Source: an uncultured Planctomycetaceae bacterium (GTDB lineage: Bacteria > Planctomycetota > Planctomycetia > Isosphaerales > Isosphaeraceae). From it: 64,000 nucleotides of DNA. Below, one piece after another: positions 1,375-50,013 of the stretch. The stretch lies in the NCBI GenBank assembly GCA_963833985.1, contig CAWIAD010000002.1, forward strand, positions 1,408,001-1,472,000, written 5' to 3'. The notes under the pieces are model-generated. The model was not told the origin of the DNA. It was given only the letters and a program-made list of their open reading frames with translations, and searched no databases. The translations under genes and the position numbers were made by a program. Position 1 is the stretch's first letter. Each line of letters begins with the position of its first letter.

Positions 1375-2727
1375 GGCGACCGGCACGTCGAGATCTACCC
1401 GGAATTGAGCTTCCCCGTTCTGTGAGATGATGCAAGGCTAGAGCCTGGCCTGTTGCCGTCTGTACACCAGGGAGGGGAACCGTCATGGAAGGATCCACTG
1501 AGTGCCTCGACGCCTTGATCTGTTCGGGAGCCAGACGGCTGACCGGATACCAGCGCCGATTGTTCATGGCCGAGGTGGCCACGGAACTCTGTGAAGGCAG
1601 CGCCCGCCAAGCTGAACGACGCTTCGGCTGGGGACGAGAAACGGTCCTGAAAGGACTGCACGAGGCCCGTCAAGGGATACGCTGTCTCGAGAATTTCGTC
1701 GCGAGAGGTCGGCTGCGCAGCGAAGAGAAGGACCCGCAACTGGCTGCGGACATCCGTGCGATCGTCGAGCCCCATACCTACGCCGATCCGGAACTGAAGT
1801 CGTCGCGACGGTACATGAACCTGTCGGCGGCGGAGGTGCGAGGAGCCTTGATTGACAAGGGCTATCCCCGAGACGCGTTGCCCAGCGAGCGCACCATGCG
1901 GGACATCCTCAACCGCATGAACTTCCGCCTCAAGCGGATTCAGAAGGGCAGGCCGCTGAAGAAGACCAAGGAGACCGACGCGATCTTCGCCAACGTGAAG
2001 GAGGTGCAGCAACAGGCTCGGGACGATCCTGAGGCGCTGGAGATCTCCATGGACACCAAGGCGAAGGTGGGATTGGGCGATTACGCTCGTGGGGGGAAAA
2101 ACCAGGACCGCCGCCGACGGTCAAGTGGCCAAGGGATGGGATCACGATCCGCCAGCCAAGGAGAAGCTGGTCCCTTTCGGCATCGTGATGCGGGTGACCG
2201 GGGTATTGATGCTCCTGTTCGGATCGCGCGAGACCAGCGACGCTTGGGCCGATGCGCTCCGCATGTGGTGGCTGCAGGTCCGGTCAGGCTTCGGGCATGT
2301 CAAGCGCCTGGTGATCTATCTGGACAACGGCCCCAAGAACTCCGGTCGGCGGACCCAGTTCCTGAAACGGATGGTCCAGTTTGCCGACTGGTCGGGGTTG
2401 GAGATTCGGTTGGTGTACTATCCCCCCTACCACAGCAAATACAACCCGATTGAACGCTGCTGGTCGGCCCTGGAGAAGAAATGGAACGGCGTGTTACTGA
2501 ACTGCCTGAAGGTGGTCCTGCAATGCGCCCTACGAATGACCTGGAAGCGCCGGCACCCGATCGTGAAACGCCTCCACGGCGAGTATCCCGATGGCGTTCG
2601 AGTCGCCGCCAAGGAGATGAAGCAGTACGAAGCTCGATTGGAAAGATCGGCGACCCTGCCGAAGTATGACATCACTATCAAACCGAGAATCACCGAGCAG
2701 CAGGGAAACTAAGACCTGCCGCTCGCC
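1375..2727 (+). mobile_element. ISAzo13-family IS, copy 1 (1353 bp)
   Basis: Terminal IRs GGCGACCGGCACGTC / GACCTGCCGCTCGCC (13/15 match); TTA target duplication at 1372-1374 and 2728-2730. Confidence 0.95.
1485..2712 (+). CDS. ISAzo13-family transposase, two frames joined at G6A5 (2091-2101)
   Basis: Motifs ISMDTKAKV, IYLDNGPKNS, YYPPYHSKYNPIERCW. Confidence 0.9.
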
Positions 2728-3000
2728 TTACGCCCGCTGGGACCTCGGCCGGATCGATCTGGTCGACGAGCAAAGTGGAACCGTCCTGGCTCCCATTTAT
2801 CCCCTCGACAAAGCCGCCAACGCCGACGGCCGCCGGGCCGTGACCGGGTCCGGTGGCACCGAGGTGCCGTCCCCAGAGCAGCGGCGCGACGCCGGCGAAC
2901 TGCCACCCCTCCTGAAAAGGATCCTCCAGGAGTACTCGGCCACGGGCATGCCGCCGGCCTATTTGCCCAGGACATCCCCGAAAGACAACGGAGAACCCTC

Positions 3001-3825
3001 ATGAATAGCAAGAAACTGCTGGCACTCTATGGGCTGAAATGGAACCCGTTTTCACCCGAGCTTCCTCCCGAAGCACTGCTGGCGCCCCCCAGGATCGAGC
3101 AATTTGCCTGGCGCGTGGAACAATTGGTCCAGGAAGGAGGCTTCGCGCTGATCACGGGTGAGTCGGGCACCGGCAAATCGGTGGCGCTGCGGATTGTGGC
3201 CGGGCGGCTGGCGGCGCTGCGGGATGTCACCGTCGGTGTGATCGAGCGACCCCAGTCGAAGAGCCCCGACTTCTATCGGGAGCTGGGGGACATCTTCGCG
3301 GTGAAGCTGGCACCGCACAATCGCTGGTGCGGGTTCAAGGCGCTCCGCGAGCGGTGGAAAGCCCACGTGGCCTCCTCGCGGATCCGCCCGGTGCTGCTGA
3401 TCGACGAAGCCCAGGAGATGAGCCCTGAGGTCCTCTGCGAGCTGCGTATTCTCTCCAGCGCCGACTTCGATGCCACGTCGCTTTTGACCGTGATCCTCTC
3501 GGGAGATGAACGACTGCTGGAACTGTTGCGGCACGAAGATCTGGTGCCCCTGGGCACCCGGATTCGCACGCGACTGGTCACCGAGCCCGCCACCCGCGAA
3601 GAGCTCCTGGAGTTGCTTCAACACGCGCTGGCCAAGGCCGGCAATGCCGCGCTCATGACGCCCCAGCTCGCAGAGACACTGGTCGACCACAGCGCGGGGA
3701 ACTACCGTTTGCTCATGATTATGGGAGGTGAGCTCTTGGCCCATGGCATGGCGCACGAAATCGGGCAGCTTGACGAGAAGTGCTACCTCGAGGTCTATCA
3801 GCCGCGAGGCCCGCGCCCGCGCTGA
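3001..3825 (+). CDS. ExeA/TniB-like AAA+ ATPase (transposition helper)
   Basis: YGLKWNPF N-terminus, Walker A GESGTGKS, Walker B LLIDEAQ; ATGA overlap with the transposase stop. Confidence 0.9.
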   Translation: MNSKKLLALYGLKWNPFSPELPPEALLAPPRIEQFAWRVEQLVQEGGFALITGESGTGKSVALRIVAGRLAALRDVTVGVIERPQSKSPDFYRELGDIFAVKLAPHNRWCGFKALRERWKAHVASSRIRPVLLIDEAQEMSPEVLCELRILSSADFDATSLLTVILSGDERLLELLRHEDLVPLGTRIRTRLVTEPATREELLELLQHALAKAGNAALMTPQLAETLVDHSAGNYRLLMIMGGELLAHGMAHEIGQLDEKCYLEVYQPRGPRPR

Positions 3826-3847
3826 AGAAGAAAGCGAAGGTGTGACG

Positions 3848-4801
3848 ATGGCGACCAGTGGCGAGCAAGTGCTTCCGGTGGTGCGTGTGGCCGAGCTTCC
3901 CAGCGATGAGCTCGCGGAGCGATGGCTGGTGGAGCAGCTCTGGTGTGCCCACGCGGTGGGCGTCATCGGCGGCGCTCCGAAGTGCGCCAAGACGTGGCTG
4001 GGGCTGGACATGGCCCTCTCCGTAGCCACGGGCACACCATGCCTGGGCAAGTATGCCGTACCGGAGCCGGGACCGGTTCTGGTTTACCTGGCTGAGGATG
4101 CGCTGCGGGCTGTGCGCGAACGTATCGAGGGAATGGCCCGGCATCGCGGTCTGGATCTCGACGAGGTGTCGATCCACGTGATCACGGTCCCGGTGCTCCG
4201 GCTCGATCACGATCGAGACCGCACGCGGCTGTGGGAGACAGTGCGGGGGCTTCGGCCTCGGCTGCTGGTGCTGGATCCCCTGGTGCGACTTCACGGCATC
4301 GACGAGAATCATGCTGGCGACGTCGCCGAATTACTCGGGTATCTGCGGTCGTTGCAGCGTCAGCTTGGCCTGGCGGTTCTGCTGGTGCATCACACGCGGA
4401 AGAACGCCGCGGACGGTGTTGCCGCCGGTCAGGGCCTGCGTGGGTCGGGTGACATACATGCCTTCGGCGACTCGAACCTGTATCTCCAGCGCACGAAGGA
4501 GCACCTGATCCTCTCCAGCGAGCACCGGTCGGCGCCGGCAGTAGCGCCTGTTTATCTGGAGCTGGTCGCCACCGACGCGGGGACAGCTCACCTGGAGGTC
4601 ATCGCAGCGCCTGATGATCGGAACGGGCGCGACCTCGAAGGGCAAGTGCTGAATCTTCTGGCTCAAGGCCGAGTGCTTACGCGAGCGAGCCTGCGTGATT
4701 CGCTGGCGGTGAAGAACGAGCGTTTAGGGACGGTACTGGAGTCACTGGAGCGCGCCGGCAAGATCGGCCGCACAACTGGAGGCTGGCGACGTCTCCGCTG
4801 A
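3848..4801 (+). CDS. RecA-fold AAA_25 (RepA/helicase-like) ATPase
   Basis: WLVEQLW, GGAPKCAKT, VYLAED, LLVLDPL, LVHHTRK, LRGSG motifs; possible C-terminal winged helix. Confidence 0.85.
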   Translation: MATSGEQVLPVVRVAELPSDELAERWLVEQLWCAHAVGVIGGAPKCAKTWLGLDMALSVATGTPCLGKYAVPEPGPVLVYLAEDALRAVRERIEGMARHRGLDLDEVSIHVITVPVLRLDHDRDRTRLWETVRGLRPRLLVLDPLVRLHGIDENHAGDVAELLGYLRSLQRQLGLAVLLVHHTRKNAADGVAAGQGLRGSGDIHAFGDSNLYLQRTKEHLILSSEHRSAPAVAPVYLELVATDAGTAHLEVIAAPDDRNGRDLEGQVLNLLAQGRVLTRASLRDSLAVKNERLGTVLESLERAGKIGRTTGGWRRLR

Positions 4802-4851: not shown

Positions 4852-4921
4852 ATCCTCCTGCAGTGAAATACACCACCGATTATCTTGCCCAGATGGCCAT
4901 CGATTATCGCGGCCACTCTCA

Positions 4922-5111
4922 CGTCGGCATCCAGATCAAGATCGAGGACCCCGGTCTGGGGGATCGTGCCCCGGATGAAGTCGAACAGCTCCCCGACCAT
5001 GATGTCCGGTGGCTCATTCTTCACGGCCATCGACCTGAGCCGATCGAGGCTTGGCCTTACACCGAAACGCCTTTCCAGTTGAGACCCTACCGAGAGTAGA
5101 TGAACTCCCAA
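4922..5111 (-). pseudogene. 5' part of ACP-like/Cys-rich gene truncated by the transposon
   Basis: TTG start with GGAGG RBS; 4922-5131 matches 49804-50013 (210 bp, 1 mismatch seen). Confidence 0.85.
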
Positions 5112-5133
5112 TGATGTCGTCCTCCCGCGTGCA

Positions 5134-5167
5134 CACGCCCCTACCGACTATAGACCCCGTTGTAATG
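5134..5167. repeat. Cassette-boundary site (weak copy, right arm shifted 2 nt)
   Basis: CCGAC-TATA-GACCC-CGTTGTAA. Confidence 0.4.
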
Positions 5168-5209
5168 TGGACGACGCGTAGGCGGCGAACCAATCGGCCT
5201 TCCCGGCCT

Positions 5210-5473
5210 TCAGATGTTATACAGAATTACCTGAAGGGCGACCAAGGCGAACACGCAGTAGCAGGCCTGCTGGGATCGCCGCAGCCACCGACGTTCATCG
5301 GCGTCGAGGTACTTCGTTGGCGGCACCGTTGCAATGGCGGTGGCCAATGATCCCCAATCTTGTCTCATTCTCTTCATCGAGCCCGGCGTCCGGACCCTTG
5401 GAATGCAGAGCAACGACCACATCCAGAGGAAGACGATGAGAACCCACAGCAGTCCTCGCAGAAAGACAAGCAT
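5210..5473 (-). CDS. Small membrane hypothetical protein
   Basis: ORF with two hydrophobic segments; ATG 5473 chosen because the TTG at 5506 lies inside the boundary site. Confidence 0.6.
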   Translation of the reverse strand: MLVFLRGLLWVLIVFLWMWSLLCIPRVRTPGSMKRMRQDWGSLATAIATVPPTKYLDADERRWLRRSQQACYCVFALVALQVILYNI

Positions 5474-5492
5474 CTGTAGTTCCCAGGGTTTG

Positions 5493-5526
5493 TTGGCTAA
5501 CTCCAACTATATATCAGCCGTTGCAC
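5493..5526. repeat. Cassette-boundary site
   Basis: TTGGCTAACTCCAAC-TATA-TATCAGC-CGTTGCAC. Confidence 0.75.
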
Positions 5527-5647
5527 TCCTCGCTCAAGAGGGACCGAAGGGGCCGCACAGAATCTCGGGTTGGAACCTGCTAGGAAACCGAACTGACTTC
5601 GCTCATTCTGACCTTGAGGACCTTCGCACGAGCATCGCCACTCAGCC

Positions 5648-7069
5648 CTACCTCTTCGTTTCGATTTGGATTAAAGAGGCGATGTCCCAGAGGACAACGC
5701 TACCCTCTTCGACCTGTTTCTCCTCCTGCGGCCGACAGATCCCTGCGAGCGTCCTACAATCCGGCGAAAAGACCATCTTCTCGACATATAGCCTGCGGCC
5801 CCCGAGTGAAAGCTCGCAGGTCGCCTTGAGTTCCCCCGTCGCCAGGTCCCGTATCCGGACTTTCATCTCGGACACGGAGAAGATCGCCCGGCCGCCGGGG
5901 GCGAACGCGGCATAGCACGATCGATCCGCCCATCCCGAGCCCATACCCTCCTGGTAATGAGCGACCTCATTCCCGGTCGCGCTGTCCCATAGTTTGATGT
6001 CGTTGTCCCTGCTCGCCGTGGCGAACCTCTTGCCATCCGGTGAGAAGGTGACGGAAGTGATTGCTCCTTTATGCCCACGGTGATTGGCTCGTGCTGTTTT
6101 GGTCGCAACGTCCCAGAGACCAACAGACCCCCGGTGATCGCCTGCGGCCAGGCTATTGCCGTCGGGCGCGAGGGCCAAGTTATTCACCACCCCTAAGCTC
6201 CCCTTTAGACTGAGGTTAGCCATCTCTCGTCCTGTGGAGAGGTCCCAGATGGTTGCACCGAAAGCATGACCGGAGGCGAACAACCTACCATCCTGAGTAA
6301 AGGCCGAACACAGACCCCCGTAGAGCCCGCAATGGAAGGAAGCCCGCACCCTGCCGGTCTCCCACTCCAGAATCCGGACGAGCCCATCGGGCCTCTTTGC
6401 TTCCTCATCTTTCCGACCCACGGCGAGTAGTTGACCGTCCGGAGAGAAAGCGACGGACCTGGAGGGTCCCTGTCCGTCGAGTAGGGAGCGAACAGTTCCC
6501 GTCGCCGTCCTCCATATCATGATGTCAGGATCGTCACCGACTGAGGCCAGATATTGGCCATCGGAGGAGAAGGCCAAGGCGACGATTCGGTCCTTGCGAC
6601 CGCGCAGAACGACTTTGGCGTTGGGGGGTCGTCCATCATCCAGGAAGCCGAACGCCGACTCGGCCGCCACTGCCACGTGCTTCCTGAGCGGGTCGAGATC
6701 TGCGACGAGGACACGGCCACCGCGCCGGACGTGTCCGAACGGCGAGAGCAAGTCGATCACCTCGCTCGCTCCGTCACCGTACTTCAGCTCCAGCGCACCC
6801 AGAGTGTTGCGATTCGAAGGGCCTTGCACATGTCTCGCCGAGGCCAGCGGCTGGAGGCACAGACGCTCAATGAGATGGGGATCGGTCAGAAGTAGTTCAA
6901 GCCTTCCGTCGGGCCCAGTGATGGAGATGCGCAATTCCGAGGGCTGCCGCTCCTTGTGCTCCGCTTGTGAAGCAGCTCCGGTTTGTGTACAGCCTCTGGG
7001 GGCGGATATCTCGCACGCCAGATGGAGGGCTAAGATGAAGAATAGACTGGGAAACGGTCGACATGCCAT
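5648..7069 (-). CDS. Secreted WD40-repeat protein
   Basis: Repeated AFSPDG...A...D..I.LWD units; signal-like N-terminus. Confidence 0.9.
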   Translation of the reverse strand: MACRPFPSLFFILALHLACEISAPRGCTQTGAASQAEHKERQPSELRISITGPDGRLELLLTDPHLIERLCLQPLASARHVQGPSNRNTLGALELKYGDGASEVIDLLSPFGHVRRGGRVLVADLDPLRKHVAVAAESAFGFLDDGRPPNAKVVLRGRKDRIVALAFSSDGQYLASVGDDPDIMIWRTATGTVRSLLDGQGPSRSVAFSPDGQLLAVGRKDEEAKRPDGLVRILEWETGRVRASFHCGLYGGLCSAFTQDGRLFASGHAFGATIWDLSTGREMANLSLKGSLGVVNNLALAPDGNSLAAGDHRGSVGLWDVATKTARANHRGHKGAITSVTFSPDGKRFATASRDNDIKLWDSATGNEVAHYQEGMGSGWADRSCYAAFAPGGRAIFSVSEMKVRIRDLATGELKATCELSLGGRRLYVEKMVFSPDCRTLAGICRPQEEKQVEEGSVVLWDIASLIQIETKR

Positions 7070-7117
7070 GTTACGCACCCCATCAGCTGAGGGGTTGGTC
7101 AGGAACTGAGTCTTGTA

Positions 7118-7151
7118 GCGCAACTGATGAATTATATTTCACCCGATGCGC
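7118..7151. repeat. Cassette-boundary site (clearly palindromic)
   Basis: GCGCAACTGATGAAT-TATA-TTTCACC-CGATGCGC; 11/15 dyad symmetry. Confidence 0.8.
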
Positions 7152-7214
7152 TCCGAGTGCCTTGCGACCGTAAGATCAGGAGCAGAACACCGGCTCCGAG
7201 GAAAGGAGATGACT

Positions 7215-7598
7215 CTAGGATGGCCTCAAGCACCACTCAGCGAGTGAGCGAGTGTCGGCGAACTCATTGACCGGAGGAAACCCAGAAAGCATGGGCACCC
7301 ACCTTCGGTAGGCGGAGTCGTATCGCTCGATAAGAGCCATGTGAAAGAGAGCCCTCTGATAGTCCCGCCACACTGCCAGACCCCGCTTTCGATAACTTGC
7401 GTCGATCGATTGCGGCGTTTCCCCGAGCTTGCAGACCGGCCCAGATCGATCGAGGCAAGCGTCGAGACGCTCGTGTTCTGCGATACAAACGCGAGTGAGC
7501 CGCTCACGACGTTGTCGAAACTCAGCCATCACGAGCGCGGACAAGGCCACTGTAAGCGTCACCATCCAAAGTCTGCACCGCGGATGGGCCAGTCGCAT
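7215..7598 (-). CDS. Hypothetical protein with planctomycete-type N-terminal leader
   Basis: GAGG RBS; MRLAHPRCRLWMVTLTVALSAL leader. Confidence 0.7.
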   Translation of the reverse strand: MRLAHPRCRLWMVTLTVALSALVMAEFRQRRERLTRVCIAEHERLDACLDRSGPVCKLGETPQSIDASYRKRGLAVWRDYQRALFHMALIERYDSAYRRWVPMLSGFPPVNEFADTRSLAEWCLRPS

Positions 7599-7700
7599 GC
7601 CACACCTCGTTCGGTTACCCAGGGAGAACTACACGCCATCGAGTCGATGCGCCCCATCTCTCAATCATGGGTGCAACACAATGCATCCTCGCGACCGCTG

Positions 7701-7734
7701 AATTGCTGCGTCAACTATACTCCACCACTTACAG
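7701..7734. repeat. Cassette-boundary site
   Basis: AATTGCTGCGTCAAC-TATA-CTCCACC-ACTTACAG. Confidence 0.75.
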
Positions 7735-7754
7735 GCCCGCCGATTGACCCGTCC

Positions 7755-8330
7755 CTACGGATCGACCAAGAGATAGAGAGCGGGAGATAGCACACCGAGG
7801 ACAACCCAGCAACTACCAAGCACCCAGCCCATCATCTCCAGCCAATCAAGGCTCCTCCTCTCTTCCGAGCGGATGATCCCAAGCAGCCAGACCGAAGCCA
7901 GCGATAACGCAACCTGCGTGGGCAGTAGAAGGCCGGTGCGAAACCAGATGCCAGTCAGGCTCCGCACTGATGAGGTGCCCTTAATGCACATCGCGATTAG
8001 GAGAAGTACCGCCCACATTATCAGCCCGGCGGAGACAACGATCCCCACGATCGCGGACGGTCGAGAAGCGAGCCTGGCCGAACGCGGTTGCCTCAGCGAC
8101 AGCACCAGGAGAGCGAGGGACCATGGAACAAGGACATCGACCGATCTGGTAATGTTGTACCAGAACCATCGGATATCACGCGGCCAGTAGCGATTCATCT
8201 CAAGCCACATAAGTTCGAGATGAGGCCGCCAAAGGGCAAGGCCGGTGGCGGTAGCGGCAAGGAACACCATCGCATCGAGTAGCGTGAAGCGGCGTAGTTC
8301 GCTGGTAGGCTTCATGCTGGATTCACGCAT
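7755..8330 (-). CDS. Multi-pass membrane hypothetical protein (RRFTLLDAMV family)
   Basis: RRFTLLDAMVFLAATA...LRQPR...DWLE..G..LG; paralog of the next gene. Confidence 0.8.
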   Translation of the reverse strand: MRESSMKPTSELRRFTLLDAMVFLAATATGLALWRPHLELMWLEMNRYWPRDIRWFWYNITRSVDVLVPWSLALLVLSLRQPRSARLASRPSAIVGIVVSAGLIMWAVLLLIAMCIKGTSSVRSLTGIWFRTGLLLPTQVALSLASVWLLGIIRSEERRSLDWLEMMGWVLGSCWVVLGVLSPALYLLVDP

Positions 8331-8384
8331 TTAGCTAGTCTTGATACAACTCGTGAACTCGCATTGCATGGATGAGTTCAGTGG

Positions 8385-8418
8385 AATGTCGAGACCTGTT
8401 ATAGGTCACCCGTACCAG
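8385..8418. repeat. Cassette-boundary site
   Basis: AATGTCGAGACCTGT-TATA-GGTCACC-CGTACCAG. Confidence 0.65.
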
Positions 8419-9159
8419 CTCACACCAAGAGCATCACGAGCAACGCTGCCGAGACACATGGCCGAGACGCCCGAACGCCAAACACTGGCCTTTGTTCACC
8501 GATAATACTGCATCTGACCACGCTTGACCGAGAACGCTAGTGATGGCTCACCGCGGCGTGTACGGGAAAGGGAATAGGTAGAATAGGAGAGGTACCAGCA
8601 AGATGTAATAGGCTCCGAGTATTCGACCCGTCCGATCAATCCATGTGGATTCAGGGTGGCAGCAGCCGCCCAGCCTCACAACGGCCCAAGAAACGCCGAC
8701 AGCGAGGCACATGTGCGGTACTAATTCATCCGTTTGTGTGAAAGCGATCAACCAGAAATCATCCAGCAGAGACCCTATCGGTAGTGTCCCTTCTGACATC
8801 CTTAAGGTCAAGTCTCGCCAGTCGTTCCCCGAGATGCAAGCCAAGGCCATCCCCGCGGCGAGTTGCACTATCCGGAACAGTGCAACGAACACGATCGCAA
8901 AGCAGGCGACGGTTCCAGGTTGTCTCATCATCCGCGTGAGCCGAGGGCGAGGTCGCATCGAACGGAGGATCAACAGTGATGAGGCGAGGGCGATATTGAT
9001 CGGTTGGAGAATGCAAACAAGACGGAACAGACTTCCCAGCATTCCCGTTAAACTTGGGTCGAACTGCCACCATTCTGATATGGCTCCCATGGTTTGACAG
9101 TAGATGCGAGCTAGGAAGATCGCAACACCGGTCGTCGCGACCAGAACCATGCCGTCTAG

Positions 9160-11403
9160 CCTACTTTCCGCACATCTCGCCTTGACTATCTCCTAATTTC
9201 CGTGTGCCGTCTTTCGGCCTGTCAGGCTCAAATCTCGTAGGCTTTGGGTATCCCCAGCAGGCGCAGGATCCTCTTCTGGAGCCGAGTTAACTCTGTGCTG
9301 AACACCTCAAGAGGGCGTTTCCCAGCCTTCAGGGAATGCTCTTGAACGTCCTCGTACAGGTCGATCACTTTTCGAGCCGTCGGGCGTCGGCAGGCCCGAC
9401 CTTCGGAATACAGTGGCAGGCTCTCGATTCCCGCTCGTTCCATCGCGCGGCGGAGTTCTCGCTCCAACAGCGCCTCGACCAGCAACACGAAGAAGTACAC
9501 GCAGAGCAAGGCCTGAATCCGACTCACCTCCTTCAGGTACATAGGCGCTACCACGAAGTCAGTCTTCAGGTGCTCGAACCGTCGTTCGATGGCCGGTTGC
9601 TGTTTGTAGGCCAAGAGCAGATCCTGCTCCGTCATCTTCGATTCGTTGCTCACCAGCGGGAAAATGCCATCACAGCGGGCCTCCTCATCCAGTCGCTCCA
9701 ACTCAATCCGATGCTTCAACGAGTAACGGAGCTTCTCCTCTCGGACGTACCGCGTGTCCTGTCCAGGCCGGCCGCGTCGCTCCTGGCGGAACTTTTCGGT
9801 GACCTGCTCCTCGATCTCGACCGAGATCCACTCGGTGACCTCACAGTCTCGGAGCAGCTCCTCGACCGCCTCGGCGACCTTGGCTCGACTGCGGTACCGG
9901 GTTCGGGACGAGGCGAGCTTGGCACGCAGTTCGTCCAGTCGTTTCAACGCCTTCTCCAGCCGGGTCAGCCGTACCTCCGCATCCAACTCGGCCTTGCGTG
10001 TGCTGTGATACCAGATCAGCCGGTAACCCTCGGTGGTCTGGCTCGCAGGTTTGCAGATCGAGAAGCGGTCGGTCAACTGTCCCTTGTCGTCGTACTTGTC
10101 GTGGGTCCATCGCCACTGGATCTCTCCCCGGAGTACGGCGCCGCGGAAGGCACCGTCCTCACTGCGAGTTCGCGGCAGCACGCTGAGGAACCGACCGCCG
10201 CGCTGATGCAGATAGGCCATGTTCTCGGTGGTGGCCAGCTTGCAGTCGGCGATGTAGAGAAAGTCTCGGCGTCCGGTCAGTTGACAGAGCAACTCCCAGG
10301 TCTCCTGGTGAGAGCGGTCGTCGGTGGCGTTGCCGCTCTCGACGCGAAAGTGCACCGGGACGGCACCGTCGCCGGTCACGGTGAGGATGTAGAGTAGCTG
10401 CTTGAGGTCGGGGCGGTGGTCTTTGTTATGACCCCAGGTCACCGCCAACCGCAATTGTCCCCGCAGGGTTCGCTCCGCCTCCGCCGACTCGTAGTCACCG
10501 TGGAAAGTGATGGTGGTCGAGTCGTTGTGTAACTGGTCGAGGCTGACGTCGAATTCGCGTACGGCATGGGCCGCGACCTTCAGGGCCAACCCCGAGAGAT
10601 TGGCGTCGAAGAGACGGTCGAGGGCCCGGCCAACTCGATCGTCGTTCATTGCGGCGACTTGGACATCGGACAACCCGAACAGTTTCGGCTCATGGCGGGC
10701 CACCCACTCACCGACACCATAGAGTGGCTCACGCGAGATCAGCAGGTTGCGCAGCAGGACGAGCAAGGCCGTGGCCGTGGGGACCCGAGTGCGGCCGTCC
10801 TCATGGGGCAGGTGGTCGCAGAGAAACTCGCGAAGGCGGAGCCGACTCAGGAAGTGTTCCAGGATGGGCACGGCGGCAATCCGCCGCGTGTTGAGCGTGC
10901 GCTTGCGTCCCTTCGAGCGTGCCGTCTCGCCGGGTTGGCGCGGTCGTTGAGGTTCGTTCATGCGGATCATCTCCGGAGGGTTTGCAGCGAGTTGGCCGGT
11001 GTCCGCCGCCGGGCCTTCCAGGGCCGTGAGGGGAGCAGGCCGACCGCCGCAGGGCTTGCCGCAATGATGGCGGAGGAGATCGGGACGTCAAGGACAAAAA
11101 ATCTTGTGATTCACTTATGACAATTTGCCTTGACGTAAGTTGTGAGCCGCTCAACTTACGCTCATAGCCCGTGTCACAAGTCGTCGCGGCGAGAATCGCG
11201 GCGCGCGGCTGGACATTGCCAAGTCATAAGACAAGGCGAAGAATGGCTCGAGTTCAGGAACGGTCCGGTTGGCGAACCATCTGAACCGAACAAGGTCCCC
11301 GTGCCGATCGACTTGTAGATGTTTACCGACCCTGGGGCCGCGTCTGAGAAGATGGCCTCAGGTCGAATTCGGGGAAATCAAAGGGAGATGTGCGGAAAGT
11401 AGG
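9160..11403 (-). mobile_element. IS1634-family IS (2244 bp)
   Basis: Perfect 19-bp IR CCTACTTTCCGCACATCTC; 6-bp target duplication GTCTAG at 9154-9159 and 11404-11409. Confidence 0.95.
9228..10970 (-). CDS. IS1634-family transposase
   Basis: MNDDRVGRALD, HNDSTT, GHNKDHRPDLKQ, IADCK, YKQQPAIERRF..LK. Confidence 0.95.
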   Translation of the reverse strand: MIRMNEPQRPRQPGETARSKGRKRTLNTRRIAAVPILEHFLSRLRLREFLCDHLPHEDGRTRVPTATALLVLLRNLLISREPLYGVGEWVARHEPKLFGLSDVQVAAMNDDRVGRALDRLFDANLSGLALKVAAHAVREFDVSLDQLHNDSTTITFHGDYESAEAERTLRGQLRLAVTWGHNKDHRPDLKQLLYILTVTGDGAVPVHFRVESGNATDDRSHQETWELLCQLTGRRDFLYIADCKLATTENMAYLHQRGGRFLSVLPRTRSEDGAFRGAVLRGEIQWRWTHDKYDDKGQLTDRFSICKPASQTTEGYRLIWYHSTRKAELDAEVRLTRLEKALKRLDELRAKLASSRTRYRSRAKVAEAVEELLRDCEVTEWISVEIEEQVTEKFRQERRGRPGQDTRYVREEKLRYSLKHRIELERLDEEARCDGIFPLVSNESKMTEQDLLLAYKQQPAIERRFEHLKTDFVVAPMYLKEVSRIQALLCVYFFVLLVEALLERELRRAMERAGIESLPLYSEGRACRRPTARKVIDLYEDVQEHSLKAGKRPLEVFSTELTRLQKRILRLLGIPKAYEI

Positions 11404-11497
11404 GTCTAGAATCGTGAAATGCCGCGTTGAATTCTGCATTGCGGGGCTTTTCCGAAGCGGGACCGTGTTCGTCATGCGTTCCTGCGCCCCCGCCTAG

Positions 11498-11531
11498 AAT
11501 GCTGCGTTCGACTATACTTCAGGATTTACGC
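11498..11531. repeat. Cassette-boundary site
   Basis: AATGCTGCGTTCGAC-TATA-CTTCAGG-ATTTACGC. Confidence 0.75.
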
Positions 11532-11547
11532 AACATGCGGTCGAAAC

Positions 11548-12504
11548 TCAACGAACGATTCTCGCCTGGGGAAGGGCCTCTCCAAGCTCTTTCACTCCGG
11601 CTTCAGTGATCCTGGTCCACTTGATGTCCAGTTCCCGCAGGCTGGTCAGTGCCTTGAGATTCGCTAGTCCGGCATCACTGATCCGGGTGTAACCGAGACC
11701 CAGCTCCCGCAGGCTGGTCAGCCCCTTTAGGTAGGACAATCCGGCATCGTTGACATAGGTGTGGTAGAGGAAGAGTCCCTTGAGGCCAGTCATGCCCTTC
11801 AGGTTCGCCAGCCCCTCTCCCGTGACCCTCGTGTTAATGAGGTCAAGCGATTGGAGGCCAGTCAATCCCTTCAGGTTGGCCAGTCCCTCGTCGGTGAACG
11901 CGGAAGAGTCGAGGGTCAGGTTTTCGAGGCGATTTAATCCCTTCAGGTGAGCCAGACCAGCGTCGCCGACACCCGTGTGGCAGAGATCTAAGGCCCTGAG
12001 CCCGGTCAGTCCTTTCAGGTTCGCGAGCCCAGTGTCAGTTACATAGATACAACCGATGAATGACAGTCGCTCAAGCCGGGTGAGTTGTGCGAGGTGGACC
12101 AATTCCGTATCTGATCCCCATTCACGAAGGCTAGCTGAGACGACGTTGCCGAAGTAATCGACTCCGATGTAATTAACCAACCAGCTCGGTGCCCAGGGCC
12201 CCGCATTCGGAATCGGTTTACCGTTCTTCCGCTCCCAATCGTACCGCACCGAGCCGCCGGCTTTCTTGATCACCGCCACCGCCTCACGCTGGACCCGCGC
12301 ATTGCGAACAATCCAGCCGAGTCCGCCTCCTACGACCAGGAGCAGGATCATCAGGGCCCGCACGCTCAGCCGGAGCCGATAGCGCCTGGATTTCGGTGAG
12401 GGCTGGTCTGGTATTTCACCCCACCGCGTGGCAAGTCTCATCTCTAGCTCACCCTTTACACCATCAATTTGACGTAAGTCCGTAATCAACGCCTCGAATT
12501 CCAT
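11548..12504 (-). CDS. Leucine-rich repeat protein with N-terminal membrane anchor (true start probably near 12414)
   Basis: 24-aa repeats TDAGLANLKGLTGLxxLDL; RLRLSVRALMILLLVVGGGLGW leader. Confidence 0.9.
   Translation of the reverse strand: MEFEALITDLRQIDGVKGELEMRLATRWGEIPDQPSPKSRRYRLRLSVRALMILLLVVGGGLGWIVRNARVQREAVAVIKKAGGSVRYDWERKNGKPIPNAGPWAPSWLVNYIGVDYFGNVVSASLREWGSDTELVHLAQLTRLERLSFIGCIYVTDTGLANLKGLTGLRALDLCHTGVGDAGLAHLKGLNRLENLTLDSSAFTDEGLANLKGLTGLQSLDLINTRVTGEGLANLKGMTGLKGLFLYHTYVNDAGLSYLKGLTSLRELGLGYTRISDAGLANLKALTSLRELDIKWTRITEAGVKELGEALPQARIVR
12428..12461. repeat. Cassette-boundary site (TCTA core)
   Basis: GTGGCAAGTCTCATC-TCTA-GCTCACC-CTTTACAC; 9/15 dyad symmetry; a second right arm ACC-CTTTACAC lies at 12524-12534. 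Confidence 0.7.
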
Positions 12505-12643
12505 TGATGCGACGGGGATATTGACCCTTTACACATTGGACCCCGCTGGAGCCCGCTTGAGGGCGGTTGCCATGCGTTCACAGGTGCACCCACCTCCACT
12601 CCGGCATATCACCGTCGGAGCGACTTCGCCAGTGCCATAAAAC

Positions 12644-12862
12644 TCACTCTTGCATGCTCTCATGATAAATGGCCAACCGCCGTCGTCTCATACGGACAGA
12701 GTGCCGCAGACCGGTGTTTGCAGCGACAGCGAACCAGCCGGCCTCGACCCCGGGATAGAATGTGATCAGCAGCCCCAGCAGGCCGAACACCGCCGCGAGC
12801 CCGACGCCAACCCGAGCCACAAACGTCCGTGGCCTCAGCAACCAGGTGCGGAAGGATGGCAT
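12644..12862 (-). CDS. Small membrane hypothetical protein (possibly degenerate)
   Basis: 72-aa ORF with one hydrophobic segment, co-oriented with the array. Confidence 0.4.
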   Translation of the reverse strand: MPSFRTWLLRPRTFVARVGVGLAAVFGLLGLLITFYPGVEAGWFAVAANTGLRHSVRMRRRRLAIYHESMQE

Positions 12863-12934
12863 CGCCGGGGGCTCCGGGTCACGAACTTGGCCATTTCTTG
12901 TTACGAGTGCACGAGGTGGGTCCAGCAGCCTGCC

Positions 12935-13159
12935 TCATCTCTGCTGTGCCTGACTTGCGGTCTGCTGAGCATCCGCCAGAGCCATCTGTAAGTGCCGCAT
13001 CACAGCTTCAGCTCGCATACGCTGCCGTCCCGCCTCGATCACCAGGAAAATCGCGGCGAAGACCAGCGCGGCAGAGACAGCCAGCGCCAGCGTCTTCCAC
13101 CGGCGGTTTGACCGCTTGAGTTGTTCAATGGCGAGGAGAAGGTCTTTTGGTTCCGTCAT
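12935..13159 (-). CDS. Small coiled-coil/membrane hypothetical protein
   Basis: MTEPKDLLLAIEQLKRSNRRWKTLALAVSAAL. Confidence 0.7.
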   Translation of the reverse strand: MTEPKDLLLAIEQLKRSNRRWKTLALAVSAALVFAAIFLVIEAGRQRMRAEAVMRHLQMALADAQQTASQAQQR

Positions 13160-13325
13160 GGGAGAAGCCCCGGGACGTTTGAAGCTGGACTGGAGGCCAA
13201 CTCGACACCATTTTACTGGGTCATTGCGGAATAAAGCGAACAAGAAAGACCCGAGGCGGGATTTGGTCCCGCGCGGTGTTGTTCCAGAATGTGGTACCTC
13301 GAACGTCGCTCTCCATCGCATGTTG

Positions 13326-13359
13326 CTGCTCGCGAAACTTTGTAACCCAGGCCATGCAC
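13326..13359. repeat. Cassette-boundary site at the head of array A (TGTA core)
   Basis: CTGCTCGCGAAACTT-TGTA-ACCCAGG-CCATGCAC. Confidence 0.55.
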
Positions 13360-13475
13360 GTGAAAGGGCACTCCTCCTGGTGTCGGACAGTCCGATGAGT
13401 CCCACAGGAGGCAAGCCCTCGTTCCATTCACGGGTCGTGCCTGGTGGAAAAGCCGCATCGCGCCCCACGATCTGC

Positions 13476-45062: not shown

Positions 45063-45114
45063 ACGAGCAAGACTGCAATGCCTGTCCTCTCTTTCTTTTG
45101 AACGAGGACGGACC

Positions 45115-45374
45115 GTGAACATCAGCTTTGAGATACCCCACGACATCGAAGAGCAGATTCGCGCCGAGGGGACGGACCTCAACCGAAAGGCGAGGGAAGC
45201 CTTCCTGCTCGAACTGTACCGCGAGGAGCGTATCTCCCATGCTCAGCTCCGGTGGCGTTGGGCTTGAGCTTCCATGCAACGGAGGTGCTCATCAAGCAAC
45301 GAAGGGTCGGGCAGGACATCGAACTCGATGAGTTCGAGTCAGGGCGCGAGTTTCTGAGGAAGGCCAGGCCCTGA
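45115..45374 (+). CDS. UPF0175-family putative antitoxin (frameshift near 45252)
   Basis: ISFEIP.DIE...AREAFLLELYRE.RISHAQL..ALGLS. Confidence 0.75.
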
Positions 45375-45658
45375 TGACGGTCGTCTGCGACATGGGGCCT
45401 CTGCACTACCTGATCCTCATCGAGGCCGAGCACATCCTGTCCCAGCTTTTCGACCGCGTGCATATTCCCCAGGCCGTGCATGCCGAACTGAGCCATCCCC
45501 ATACCCCCGAGCCGGTCCGACGCTGGGCCGTCGCTCTTCCTTCCTGGGTCGAGGTGAAGGAGCCTACCAAGATCGAGGACATTCCATTGCTCGGCAGAAG
45601 GGGCTTGAAAGGAGCAGGCGAGCCTCGCCGAGCGTCGTTCCAGCTCATTCAGGAATGA
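45374..45658 (+). pseudogene. DUF3368/PIN-like toxin, truncated after GAGE
   Basis: VVCDMGPLHYLILI...IPQAVHAEL...TPEPVRRW; the C-terminal half is missing. Confidence 0.75.
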
Positions 45659-45981
45659 AGCTCGCCGCTCCAGTAACGGAACTCGATCGTCTCGTCCCCG
45701 CGCTGGTACCGTAGCTCAGAGGCCGGAACTTCGGTGACCCACACGTCTTTTGCCACCCAATTGGTCCGGCTGACCGCGATGATCGCCCGGTCGTTGAGTA
45801 CGTCGTCGATGAATCGCCGTATCGCGGCGGGCTCGCCCAGGCCTGAAGACGAGGCCAGGATATCTGCGTGAGTATGCCACGGGAAGCCCGCAAAACCAAT
45901 GGCCGTATCGCCATCGGCCGCGCGGCAGACCACGAGTTTCAGCAAGCCATCGTTGCTCGTGTGCGCCTCGACGATACTCAA
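45649..45981 (-). CDS. Hypothetical protein
   Basis: TTG start after GGGAG; IVEAHTSNDGLL...GFAGFPWHTHADIL...FRYWSG. Confidence 0.65.
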   Translation of the reverse strand: MSIVEAHTSNDGLLKLVVCRAADGDTAIGFAGFPWHTHADILASSSGLGEPAAIRRFIDDVLNDRAIIAVSRTNWVAKDVWVTEVPASELRYQRGDETIEFRYWSGELHS

Positions 45982-46043
45982 CGGCACCGGCTCCCGGAGG
46001 TCTCCCGAGACCGCCTCGCCTCGCCACGCAGGAAGGAAAGAGG

Positions 46044-46283
46044 TCAAGGGGCTTGCTGCTGGGACGGCAGAGCCAGCCATTCGGGCTGCTGGCTCAACCA
46101 CGCTCGATACTGCCTTCCCCGGATAAATCCGCCCCATGCGAACCCAGCGAGCAGGATTGCCAGGACCACGGCGACAAGCCGAAGCTGCCGGGTTGGGGAG
46201 ACTAACCCGGCCAGGGCGACGACGGCAGCTGTGTGTGCCCCACTTGGCGGACGCCGGCGCAACGAGGGGCCAGGGGGTTGCAT
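46044..46283 (-). CDS. Small membrane hypothetical protein
   Basis: 79-aa ORF with a hydrophobic segment, downstream of a boundary site. Confidence 0.45.
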   Translation of the reverse strand: MQPPGPSLRRRPPSGAHTAAVVALAGLVSPTRQLRLVAVVLAILLAGFAWGGFIRGRQYRAWLSQQPEWLALPSQQQAP

Positions 46284-46306
46284 CGGATAAGCGAAGCGTG
46301 CCTTGA

Positions 46307-46340
46307 GTGTAAAGATTCAACTACAGTTCAGACGTTACAC
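46307..46340. repeat. Cassette-boundary site (clearly palindromic, TACA core)
   Basis: GTGTAAAGATTCAAC-TACA-GTTCAGA-CGTTACAC; 11/15 dyad symmetry. Confidence 0.8.
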
Positions 46341-46582
46341 ATTTCGATCAGTGTTCTGAGGGTCGCTCAAGGCTAAAACGGTGAGTCGTTTGTCCAGTTC
46401 GGCTCTCTGCCTTGCGATGAAGATGCAGCGTGATTGGTGGTGGGCTGGCGTCATCGTGAAACCGATGGTCTTCCGTCAATTCCGTCAATGCTATGCGTAC
46501 TGTCGCATACCCCACTGCCTCGACATCCACCTGCCAGCAGCAATATAAGACACATCGTGACTTTCTGAAGAGCGTTGAGTTA

Positions 46583-47935
46583 GGCGAGCGGCAGGTCTTA
46601 GTTTCCCTGCTGCTCGGTGATTCTCGGTTTGATAGTGATGTCATACTTCGGCAGGGTCGCCGATCTTTCCAATCGAGCTTCGTACTGCTTCATCTCCTTG
46701 GCGGCGACTCGAACGCCATCGGGATACTCGCCGTGGAGGCGTTTCACGATCGGGTGCCGGCGCTTCCAGGTCATTCGTAGGGCGCATTGCAGGACCACCT
46801 TCAGGCAGTTCAGTAACACGCCGTTCCATTTCTTCTCCAGGGCCGACCAGCAGCGTTCAATCGGGTTGTATTTGCTGTGGTAGGGGGGATAGTACACCAA
46901 CCGAATCTCCAACCCCGACCAGTCGGCAAACTGGACCATCCGTTTCAGGAACTGGGTCCGCCGACCGGAGTTCTTGGGGCCGTTGTCCAGATAGATCACC
47001 AGGCGCTTGACATGCCCGAAGCCTGACCGGACCTGCAGCCACCACATGCGGAGCGCATCGGCCCAAGCGTCGCTGGTCTCGCGCGATCCGAACAGGAGCA
47101 TCAATACCCCGGTCACCCGCATCACGATGCCGAAAGGGACCAGCTTCTCCTTGGCTGGCGGATCGTGATCCCATCCCTTGGCCACTTGACCGTCGGCGGC
47201 GGTCCTGGTTTTTCCCCCCACGAGCGTAATCGCCCAATCCCACCTTCGCCTTGGTGTCCATGGAGATCTCCAGCGCCTCAGGATCGTCCCGAGCCTGTTG
47301 CTGCACCTCCTTCACGTTGGCGAAGATCGCGTCGGTCTCCTTGGTCTTCTTCAGCGGCCTGCCCTTCTGAATCCGCTTGAGGCGGAAGTTCATGCGGTTG
47401 AGGATGTCCCGCATGGTGCGCTCGCTGGGCAACGCGTCTCGGGGATAGCCCTTGTCAATCAAGGCTCCTCGCACCTCCGCCGCCGACAGGTTCATGTACC
47501 GTCGCGACGACTTCAGTTCCGGATCGGCGTAGGTATGGGGCTCGACGATCGCACGGATGTCCGCAGCCAGTTGCGGGTCCTTCTCTTCGCTGCGCAGCCG
47601 ACCTCTCGCGACGAAATTCTCGAGACAGCGTATCCCTTGACGGGCCTCGTGCAGTCCTTTCAGGACCGTTTCTCGTCCCCAGCCGAAGCGTCGTTCAGCT
47701 TGGCGGGCGCTGCCTTCACAGAGTTCCGTGGCCACCTCGGCCATGAACAATCGGCGCTGGTATCCGGTCAGCCGTCTGGCTCCCGAACAGATCAAGGCGT
47801 CGAGGCACTCAGTGGATCCTTCCATGACGGTTCCCCTCCCTGGTGTACAGACGGCAACAGGCCAGGCTCTAGCCTTGCATCATCTCACAGAACGGGGAAG
47901 CTCAATTCCGGGTAGATCTCGACGTGCCGGTCGCC
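46583..47935 (-). mobile_element. ISAzo13-family IS, copy 3 (1353 bp)
   Basis: Reverse-complement copy; TTA duplication at 46580-46582 and 47936-47938. Confidence 0.95.
46598..47825 (-). CDS. ISAzo13-family transposase (G6A5 frameshift)
   Basis: Translation identical to copies 1 and 2. Confidence 0.9.
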
Positions 47936-48249
47936 TTAGAGCAGCAATTGAACCCGAGGCTGATGGTCGTCTGACCATCCAGACCGGTGGTCGGAGCACG
48001 GTATTCGGCGCGATTGAATTCCGTAAACTTCACCTGGGCTGCTGAGATCGGACGCCCGGAGTCCGCATCGAGGACCGTGAACCTGAGCGGTACATCGGCT
48101 CTTTCGAACGACTGATTGATCGCAGGTGAAGCCAAAAAGACGAGGAGAGCCGTCGCACCACCCATCGCCAACAGCACCGCAGTCCCTTTGAAGATTCGAT
48201 GCAATGGCATGTTCCACCTGGCGGTCCAAGGACGCTCACTTAACCCCGA

Positions 48250-48283
48250 TCTGTCAACACCGTTTATAGTTCCGGCGATACAC
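48250..48283. repeat. Cassette-boundary site
   Basis: TCTGTCAACACCGTT-TATA-GTTCCGG-CGATACAC. Confidence 0.7.
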
Positions 48284-48311
48284 AGTATCTCGGATTCCCA
48301 GGTATGCCGAC

Positions 48312-48758
48312 CTAATCTCGAAGTCCTTCGAGCAAGTCAAATCCTTCAAGCAAGATGTCGATGTCACTGGCCAATACTTGCTCCCAGGCGTAAGAAACTC
48401 GATGCACCAATTCCTCCAGCTGGTCTCGGAACGCTTGGGTGAACGTCGCTCCGCGTGACCAGCGACGATGATATTCCAGTCCTTCATCAATGATACAAGC
48501 AACCGGGTAGGCGACTTCCGCGATAGCCGTCGAGTCTTCCCTCGGGCCTCTCCGCTCCGAGGGCACGGGGCCGTTGAGCCGACCGTTGACGGCCTCCAGG
48601 CAATCGAGGATGTCGCCGCACAGCGGCTGAACGTCGGGGGCCACCCGGTTTCGTTCCGCGTCCCACAATACCCATCCGAAGCTCTCCGTCTCCGGGAGTT
48701 GTCCCCCGGGGAGGTTTGCGTGGTTACAAAGGCGAGCGATCGCTTCCTCAAAAGTCAT
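48312..48758 (-). CDS. Hypothetical acidic protein
   Basis: 148-aa ORF with GGGAG RBS. Confidence 0.7.
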   Translation of the reverse strand: MTFEEAIARLCNHANLPGGQLPETESFGWVLWDAERNRVAPDVQPLCGDILDCLEAVNGRLNGPVPSERRGPREDSTAIAEVAYPVACIIDEGLEYHRRWSRGATFTQAFRDQLEELVHRVSYAWEQVLASDIDILLEGFDLLEGLRD

Positions 48759-48790
48759 TCACGTGGCTCCCGGCGGTCAGTCATAACCCC

Positions 48791-49099
48791 TTACTCATTG
48801 CTTTTATGGAAGAGGCGCATAGCCATCCGTATATCGCCCAGAGCATCCTCCGCGTGGGTAAGCTCGTGAAGCGCCTCACCGAACTTCTCCCATCCGCCGA
48901 GCCTGAGCAGCTCCTCGCGGACGTATGACAACGCCCTCTCGGCGTCGCTGATGCTGCTCTCGGCGTTTACTCGCCACCATGAAGTGAAGTGGTCTGCGAT
49001 CCAGGCTGCTGGCTCGGTGCCCTCTGGCAATCGGCCCATGGGCGACAGGGCCTGCTCGATCCAGTTCACCAGGGCTTCCCTCACCTCATCGCTCGCCAT
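48791..49099 (-). CDS. Hypothetical protein
   Basis: 102-aa ORF with AGGA RBS, co-oriented with the array. Confidence 0.65.
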   Translation of the reverse strand: MASDEVREALVNWIEQALSPMGRLPEGTEPAAWIADHFTSWWRVNAESSISDAERALSYVREELLRLGGWEKFGEALHELTHAEDALGDIRMAMRLFHKSNE

Positions 49100-49174
49100 T
49101 TCGATTCATCCTGGAAGATGAAGGGTCTCGCTCTACTCGAACCGTACAGATAATGCATGGTTGCGTTTAGTGGA

Positions 49175-49208
49175 GCTGCTGCGTCGAACTATATACCACC
49201 CGATGCGG
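49175..49208. repeat. Cassette-boundary site inside a longer hairpin
   Basis: GCTGCTGCGTCGAAC-TATA-TACCACC-CGATGCGG. Confidence 0.8.
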
Positions 49209-49267
49209 CAGCAGCCAACGCGACGCATGCTTCTCCTGGCAGGAATGGCCATGCAGGAACGGTAGGT

Positions 49268-49993
49268 TTAAGGAAGAGGTAACAGCCTGAAAATGCGTGC
49301 CAGCATTCTGACTGATAGCGGCGGGCGCATCTCCTGGCGGGAGGCCCGGAGTCGATCGTTATAAGCTTGCATGTTCTCCCCTGTCTCGACCCATTCCAGC
49401 TCCCGGCACCTTACATGCTTCCGGCAGCCGACGCAGTAGGATCGATCTACCATGTATGTGTGCGGATTCTCGAGATACGTCCGGATGATCTCCTCCGGCA
49501 TGACGGTACGTTGGCCGCAACGCCAATGGCGGTAAACGCGCGGCACGCCTTCCAGCGAACCTTGATATCGGTCGTCGGGAGGCAAAGTGACATACTCGCT
49601 GAGCCGGCCGTCGGGGCGAAGCCGGGTGTGCTCAAGCCGATGTGCCTCATCCTGTTCCGGATCGACCCATTCATGACAGTAGCGGCAACGTGACCAGGGC
49701 CTATCGACCCCGAGGTCACGAATGAGCCATTTCTCCTTGCTGACCACCTCAGCCTCGACGCTCAGGGCGTCGGACATCGCACGCTGATACACGGGCCAGA
49801 GAGCGTCGGCATCCAGATCAAGATCGAGGACCCCGGTCTGGGGGATCGTGCCCCGGATGAAGTCGAACAGCTCCCCGACCATGATGTCCGGTGGCTCATT
49901 CTTCACGGCCATCGACCTGAGCCGATCGAGGCTTGGCCTTACACCGAAACGCCTTTCCAGTTGAGACGCTACCGAGAGTAGATGAACTCCCAA
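49268..49993 (-). CDS. ACP-like (permuted) domain fused to a Cys/His-rich domain
   Basis: TTG start with GGAGG; LERRFGV...VGELFDFI then LW....DAL.V...V....LIRDLGVD; CRYC, HWRC and CVGC motifs. Confidence 0.7.
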   Translation of the reverse strand: MGVHLLSVASQLERRFGVRPSLDRLRSMAVKNEPPDIMVGELFDFIRGTIPQTGVLDLDLDADALWPVYQRAMSDALSVEAEVVSKEKWLIRDLGVDRPWSRCRYCHEWVDPEQDEAHRLEHTRLRPDGRLSEYVTLPPDDRYQGSLEGVPRVYRHWRCGQRTVMPEEIIRTYLENPHTYMVDRSYCVGCRKHVRCRELEWVETGENMQAYNDRLRASRQEMRPPLSVRMLARIFRLLPLP

Positions 49994-50013
49994 TGATGTC
50001 GTCCTCCCGCGTG

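Follow-up and report, generated by a model that had tools for sequence, protein, structure and literature searches.

The crossover site of small serine resolvases and invertases is a dyad around a 2-bp centre, accompanied by accessory arms at fixed distance, and the short dyads of pdif/Xer and lox-type tyrosine sites bound accessory gene modules. The textbook cassette platform is the integron, which depends on a tyrosine enzyme and on folded single-stranded sites. PMC8618304 treats sedentary chromosomal integrons and clusters of attC sites lacking integron-integrases (CALINs) in terms of IntI, attI, Pc and attC, and PMC10083194 reports swappable dinucleotide cores for large serine recombinases (LSRs). 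Here we describe a repeated dyad site that separates co-oriented accessory genes in two arrays, A and B, of a 64-kb stretch of the 10.2-Mb genome, with genes of planctomycete type, of an uncultured member of the Isosphaeraceae. This whole stretch (positions 1408001-1472000 of contig C2, one of the contigs C1 and C2 of the source genome G000) is called the window; other compared genomes carry G-numbers, fetched loci or stretches L-numbers and protein relatives of the LSR P-numbers. The repeated motif is, with little doubt, the joint of a cassette system. On balance we favour a gene-cassette system that would be integron-like in its working and would operate by double-stranded, serine-type site-specific recombination.

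The repeated site and its point of exchange

The final model of the site was a weight matrix of 304 sites, none of which came from the source genome, yet they were first located via a model that was seeded there. Two matches within a coding gene (C1:1401536 and 1401861) were excluded from the seed. An early matrix, made from eight window sites, had already retrieved independent clusters elsewhere in the source genome. The site is a 36-bp dyad with the gene-sense consensus nSYGnAAMSSSTGAWY, YAKW, RWYSRnnSKKnMMRnn, and the motifs of one arm recur, inverted, in the other, on either side of a 4-bp core, YA(T/G)W. TAGA, TATA, CATA and CAGA were the commonest cores among 330 sites; the central dinucleotide is AT or AG, and TAGA and CAGA are as frequent as TATA and CATA. 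A sequence-only reading of the window had described the site as ~34 bp and TATA-centred; its length has to be corrected and the second description applies to array A only. The eight cores which that reading quoted for array A, together with their right halves, are all present where it placed them, and five of them (5508, 7133, 7716, 11513 and 12443) were recovered outright by this matrix. The core at 8400 has a good upstream arm (p=1e-4 per position) and a downstream arm out of register, that at 13341 lies 5' of the array head and has a weak upstream arm, and that at 5149, of which neither arm was significant, found no support (scores in Table 1). The matrix also recovered the three array-B sites (46322, 48265 and 49190) and nothing further of at least 12 bits in the window; as background, a shuffled 10-Mb genome yields 32 matches at this threshold.

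The distribution of the site was surveyed with a covariance model of 24 sites in the 121 genomes assigned to the Isosphaeraceae by record titles, 57 candidates being scored per genome. The model matched 68 of the 120 other family genomes at E ≤ 1. Twenty-four of the 121 genomes, the source included, were site-rich, with 8-48 matches each in co-oriented arrays. No site match was found in G001 and G002, which belong to the same genus as the source, and among 150 phylum-wide genomes 40 matched at E ≤ 0.3 with a maximum of three matches each, which is about chance level. The feature is restricted to the family. In 40 stretches, fetched since they held site matches, there were 313 sites of at least 14 bits against 1 in shuffles, and 260 of 281 neighbouring sites had the same orientation, which bears out the expectation that matches cluster in co-oriented arrays. 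Gene-size intervals (n = 153) had a median of 604 bp and carried their longest open reading frame (ORF) on the sense strand in 137 cases. Twenty-six of 148 cassette proteins matched Pfam, largely as repeat proteins and domains of unknown function, and toxin-antitoxin pairs were present in the arrays of the source genome. Within that genome 30 matches reached at least 16 bits; 22 of them lay in arrays, in a cassette pair or adjoining an LSR remnant, and the remaining eight scored 16-19 bits, compared with three in shuffles. Three further headed arrays were seen in the source genome (C2:232626-235121, C2:3066002-3069263 and C2:6464317-6465240), two with 57-bp doublets of the site and one with a HicAB pair. 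At another locus (L007, C2:755408-757080) a phasin-like gene is duplicated on either side of a ParE-type toxin-antitoxin pair, itself bounded by one good and one weak site, and this pair recurs as a cassette in L040 and L041.

The point of exchange was located on disjoint pairs of homologous flanks in differing contexts, by comparing the number of identical bases in each site column with expectation. In 16 pairs with a common downstream flank, columns 8-17 stayed near expectation (column 15, 5 vs. 7; column 17, 9 vs. 7), and columns 19-21 agreed in 13, 14 and 14 pairs where 7, 8 and 8 were expected. In 31 pairs of heads with differing first cassettes, agreement was high at column 17 (27 vs. 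13) and column 19 (30 vs. 14) and dropped beyond it (column 20, 18 vs. 15; column 21, 16 vs. 15). By this column-wise agreement, column 19 goes with both sides, and columns 16-17 and columns 20-21 each go with a single side. The axis of the dyad falls between columns 18 and 19. Homology between homologous cassettes accordingly breaks inside the 4-bp core, as had been anticipated for a recombination joint. On this sequence evidence the breakpoints fit a 2-bp serine-type overlap and not a 6-8-bp spacer, and serine-type chemistry is likely. Lox-like tyrosine recombination needs a 6-bp homologous spacer; columns 16-17 and 20-21, which are not common across the breakpoints, argue against it. The same cassette was found behind the head in one array and behind the spacer in another in three cases (L341/L049, L163/L348 and L171/L044).

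That spacer is part of a gene-less doublet of sites. Sixty-six doublets spaced exactly 57 bp were present in the 40 stretches; in these, linker and inner arms are conserved and the outer arms differ according to the adjoining genes. Over the loci analysed, intervals of ~57 bp ran from AT to AG in 93 of 128 cases. Gene-size intervals (n = 279) ran from AG to AT in 130, AT to AT in 49, AG to AG in 32 and AT to AG in 14 cases, and an array typically reads head-AG, gene, AT, 57-bp spacer, AG, gene. Two sequence types of the 57-bp unit were seen in L038-L077, the linker of one being a small GC-rich inverted repeat.

The sequence-only reading had named a shared promoter or operator, placed before accessory genes and with no role in recombination, as the alternative, and of the six supported array-A sites, five do have TATA as their core. 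This explanation is hardly credible: the flanks exchange at the core, the 57-bp doublets contain no gene, cores with G are as common as those with T, most strong genome matches belong to the array contexts given above, and start codons lie anywhere between about 0 and 107 bp from the site.

An atypical integron or CALIN, in which very short attC-like hairpins would be served by an IntI-like enzyme in trans, would account for the integron-like layout, for the prevalence of sense-strand ORFs and for the toxin-antitoxin pairs. A profile of IntI (TIGR02249) was run on five site-rich genomes; it scored above cut-off in G046, a true IntI, and below it in the other four (the source, G010, G033 and G042). 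The attC boxes RYYYAAC...GTTRRRY span 2 of 303 sites and none of the eight window cores. Doublets of 93 bp fold no better than shuffles (n = 40; median z 0.19 and -0.14; 3 of 40 below -2 per strand), and no covariation was found in 24 aligned sites. Three sites of the window had been called clear palindromes; the one at 7133 folds better than shuffles (z -3.2/-4.8) and the other two do not. We regard an integron as very improbable and the system as no member of that group because IntI, attC boxes and folding all fail. Together with the exchange of flanks at the core and the co-oriented arrays, this supports the earlier proposal of a gene-stockpiling system other than an integron, with the sites as its recombination joints and its enzyme encoded elsewhere.

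Array heads and the candidate recombinase

An alignment of 36 heads showed a conserved non-coding element of ~180 bp that precedes the first site. Its 5' part is promoter-like, though degenerate in the window copy, and the element also contains an accessory upstream arm, a conserved ACTTACGTCAAA box and the primary site's upstream arm. The accessory and primary arms are 73 bp apart in 33 of 42 heads, and the primary core is AG in 97 of 111. The promoter signal is a conserved -10-like box; in the window copy, the consensus scan returned one weak promoter, 5' of the head. An exact head pattern in two forms, which matches 17-19 of the 42 known heads, was run over 185,579 genomes and retrieved 72 loci, 69 of them titled Isosphaeraceae or other Planctomycetota. 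In 70 of these 72 no same-strand site lay upstream within the stretch fetched (≤4 kb), and 58 had sites downstream. Searches of viral contigs, of plasmids and of 152 genomes from other families of the class did not find the head. Three bins titled proteobacteria (L132, L134 and L155) also contained heads with an intact primary site; the flanks of L155 are planctomycete-like and misbinning is likely.

The head could be imagined to encode a guide RNA, the cassettes then being non-autonomous units of the IS110/IS1111 type that carry passenger genes and use their own junction as the target for tandem insertion. A 2-bp core would suit IS110-type recombination, and transposases of this type are present in all five site-rich genomes inspected. 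The sense strand of the 36 heads gave no consensus base pair, the head had no match in Rfam, an IS110-like ORF was seen by eye upstream of one of 42 heads (L041), and the arm motifs are inverted as for a protein dimer. Such units are, in our estimation, very unlikely.

The gene that is linked to heads encodes an LSR of ~715 aa with Resolvase, Recombinase and zinc-ribbon domains (Pfam); the catalytic YxRxS was seen in the frame of the source genome. The SPbeta and TP901-1 integrase structures were sequence matches, DUF4368 was not matched, and the best NCBIfam matches, XisF and CcrA/B/C, were all far below cut-off. The gene lies directly 5' of the head and co-oriented with it in L054, a single locus, and deletion remnants are found elsewhere, including at two heads of the source genome (C1:1189113-1190559 and C2:236164-235193). 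An LSR profile matched within 3 kb upstream of 10 of 111 heads (seven distinct co-oriented genes and one distant gene on the opposite strand), downstream of none of the 111, and in 2 of 400 random windows. At the DNA level, LSR-gene or left-end remnants were present at 14 of 105 heads and the gene-head spacer alone at five more, in a set enriched by fetching; in 72 unselected heads the figures were eight and one. The sequence-only reading had pointed to serine resolvases and invertases and suggested looking for a serine or tyrosine recombinase gene at the array heads. In kind the serine hint was probably right, if for another reason: a large serine recombinase lies upstream of about one head in eight. 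None adjoins array A, and the small resolvases to which the hint referred showed no consistent link to heads.

The LSR family is broad and resembles insertion sequences (ISs), with matches in 72 of 121 genomes. Multi-copy relatives have GAG at both ends (four copies in G107, six in G111), AG occurs near the matching place in 15 of 16 left ends of close LSRs, and intact close relatives exist (P0001, 714 aa, 91%). Viral contigs gave no match to the LSR. Of the 24 site-rich genomes, 13 had close LSR pieces among the candidates listed, as against 1 of the 97 others; kin in this comparison are not independent. The head-linked LSRs fall in one clade of 13 rows that includes four headless members. 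No tyrosine recombinase, nor any recombinase other than the LSR, recurs beside heads. These observations tip us slightly towards this LSR clade as the enzyme; it is the best candidate.

Two further candidates were dropped. Small resolvases (L063/L078 and L090) had a head at 2 of 30 loci and then at 1 of 30, the latter the same locus as one of the former, and these resolvases carry a different upstream motif. In L063 (9554-10089) the gene of a small resolvase ends abruptly at an inverted site that lies between two heads, which may show the attachment of an arm to captured DNA. The other, a 2.0-kb LSR element with 11 copies in the source genome and terminal inverted repeats, has no link to arrays. 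Its repeats are near-perfect over ~21 bp (C1:775205-777222), which is unusual for such an enzyme, and most copies sit at one position in a larger multi-copy element with an ORF that by eye is reverse-transcriptase-like; two stand alone.

The following working is suggested. A recombinase dimer would bind both arms and cut around the 2-bp centre, and AG and AT sites would therefore constitute two separate channels. A gene with its spacer would leave as a circle, by AG x AG or AT x AT exchange, and its re-entry could take place at any like site or at the head, where it would come to lie behind the promoter; AT-to-AT cassettes, such as those of the window, could move on their own. With less support, the enzyme may be the ~715-aa LSR, encoded by an IS-like element that gave rise to the head from its 3' end; most heads would since have lost the LSR gene and would now be either served in trans or frozen. 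We give an even chance to the complete proposal, a 'serine integron', in which the 3' end of an LSR element was turned into a promoter-bearing entry site and cassettes are shuffled via AG/AT channels and a 57-bp adaptor, as a second, independent origin of integron-like capture.

Several points weigh against this interpretation. The 19 non-head pairs with a common upstream flank were blurred (column 19, 16 vs. 9; columns 20-22, 11, 12 and 12 vs. 9, 9 and 8), and column 18 is nearly always A, so that the 2-bp overlap rests on column 19 and the dyad axis. Site scores do not drop with distance from the head and gave no sign of ordered accretion. Cassette exchange is deduced from the comparison of sequences. 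As to the enzyme, the left end of the LSR element scores as no site arm (p 0.035-0.78), only AG being common, and its left flanks are unlike upstream arms. LSRs of 79-82% identity (L181-L183 and L212) and all scored relatives at ~50% are headless, though many metagenome contigs end soon after the gene; the head label needs two changes on the LSR tree. Every head-linked copy seen is deleted or frameshifted, ~85-90% of heads lack any trace of an LSR, and the 4-8 candidates scored in each of the site-rich genomes G042 and G087 included no close LSR piece.

Such points leave room, at a distinctly lower probability, for the same cassette system with another enzyme, either a lox-like tyrosine or a different serine recombinase, the LSR element merely carrying the head or having once captured it. 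The headless close LSRs, the mismatch between LSR end and site, and the many other recombinases in site-rich genomes would agree with this; the breakpoint columns (for a lox-like enzyme), the lack of any other recombinase that recurs by heads, and the concentration of close LSR pieces in site-rich genomes oppose it. A 3'-end model of headless LSR elements found no array tails, and a word resembling a left arm was no more frequent behind headless LSRs than in the background. Contigs from three DNA sequencing runs, in which the target organism had a small share, held no joint at a site and were uninformative.

Arrays A and B in the window

The features of both arrays are collected in Table 1. 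Array A had been read as nine unrelated minus-strand genes. An IS1634-family element, multi-copy in the source genome, splits the reading frame of the second cassette gene and is not a cassette; that gene and cassette 3 show a weak resemblance (23% over 190 aa, E=0.016). The outermost gene on the left is the first part of a gene that an IS block has disrupted, and its homology to L052 and L371 begins near 5118. At the other end, the genes 12644-12862 and 12935-13159 are situated on the upstream side of the head. The array also continues ~7.9 kb to the left of the window, this extension being interrupted by several IS elements. ORFs related to the leucine-rich-repeat gene of cassette 1 occur at many other array loci, and the homologues of cassette 3 in L051 and L179 were found by tblastn (28-32% identity, E 1e-7 to 3e-9) with sites adjoining.

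Table 1. Features of arrays A and B, given in window positions; bit scores are from the 304-site matrix.
Feature	Position	Strand	Evidence
Array head, ~180 bp non-coding	12444..12623	-	head profile, nhmmer E=3e-39
Primary site, core 12443-12446 TAGA in gene sense, AG	12427..12462	-	41.8 bits
Cassette 1, leucine-rich-repeat (LRR) protein; start maybe up to ~60 bp further 5'	11548..12363	-	Pfam LRR
Site, AT core	11497..11532	-	16.1 bits
IS1634-family element in 5' end of cassette gene 2; no cassette	9160..11403	-	26-bp inverted repeats, NF033559
Cassette 2, hydrophobic protein, body of IS-split gene	8548..9150	-	no Pfam match
Site, AT core; upstream arm intact, downstream out of register	8384..8419	-	5.0 bits; arm p=1e-4
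Cassette 3, hydrophobic protein	7755..8330	-	distant homologues are site-bounded cassettes in L051, L179
Site, AT core	7700..7735	-	14.2 bits
Cassette 4, 127-aa protein of unknown function	7215..7598	-	ORF; no Pfam match
Site, AT core; near-perfect dyad, two upstream-type arms (left-left joint)	7117..7152	-	23.6 bits
Cassette 5, WD40 beta-propeller protein	5648..7069	-	Pfam WD40
Site, AT core	5492..5527	-	28.1 bits
Cassette 6, short ORF of unknown function	5210..5506	-	no Pfam match
Claimed weak site 5149, unsupported; just 5' of gene start	5133..5168	-	-9.9 bits
5' piece of gene broken at 4921 by IS block	4922..5118	-	homologue in site-bounded cassette, L052 and L371
Claimed site 13341, weak upstream arm only, 5' of head	13325..13360	-	-16.3 bits; arm p=1.3e-3
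Array B, copy of distal array A, headless	45097..50013	-	blastn 99%
Array-B sites (46322, 48265, 49190)	46306-46341, 48249-48284, 49174-49209	-	identical to those of distal array A; 35.4, 13.6, 14.0 bits

The source of array B corresponds to window positions -7867 to -660 plus 4922-5131, minus IS elements. A search for relatives of its cassette gene at 48312-48758 found none, and no recombinase gene was found beside array A or B. Array A is mostly AT-to-AT, with no 57-bp doublet and no linked LSR. It may be a worn example of the system, cut by IS elements, which has kept its head and is missing the LSR and the 57-bp spacers.

A nested IS block within array A occupies window positions 320-4801 and contains an IS481/IS21-like integrase-core gene, an ISAzo13-type transposase and two AAA ATPases. 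Elsewhere in the source genome (C2:5798453-5803669), diverged paralogues of the window genes 12935-13159, 45649-46320 and 49268-50215 are grouped with weak sites only, possibly as a decayed array.

Comparison with known cassette systems

A literature search, which covered few subscription papers, found no description of such a system. The small-resolvase res sites resemble it in their fixed arm distances, here 73 bp in heads and 57 bp in doublets; the present site is longer than resolvase crossover sites and shows no consistent link to a small resolvase. It differs from pdif/Xer and lox sites in being co-oriented within arrays and in sharing no 6-8-bp spacer across breakpoints. The likeness to LSR elements, including multi-targeting and TndX-like ones, as presented in PMC10083194, extends to the same domains, short dyad sites, a dinucleotide core and sharp-ended IS-like relatives. 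There the enzymes move their own element in and out, whereas here separate cargo genes, outside any intact element, are flanked by degenerate like sites that number in the dozens. The natural alternation of AT and AG mirrors the orthogonal-dinucleotide trick of engineered serine integrases described in the same text (PMC10083194). Hundreds of natural site variants offer a ready specificity map. Given the 57-bp unit and the head, one enzyme and a few plasmids would suffice to test how cassettes are excised and perhaps also how they are created.

With integrons and CALINs, as PMC8618304 describes them, the system shares tandem, co-oriented single-gene cassettes, mostly of unknown function and including some toxin-antitoxin pairs and some ORF-less units. 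It also shares a distinct head that combines a promoter-like element with a primary site, and the occurrence of many arrays without an enzyme gene (PMC8618304). Unlike integrons, it has neither an IntI in the source genome nor attC boxes or a hairpin, and its linked gene encodes a serine recombinase in the same orientation; exchange takes place at the centre of a 36-bp dyad site, which comes in two dinucleotide classes and alternates with a 57-bp spacer. If our interpretation holds, a pool of mobile genes escapes the tools that search for integrons (122 of the 148 sampled cassette proteins had no Pfam match), and the same layout was reached with double-stranded sites and a 2-bp core, so that gene stockpiling would have arisen twice. 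The system is an analogue of the integron built from other parts, and is not an integron.

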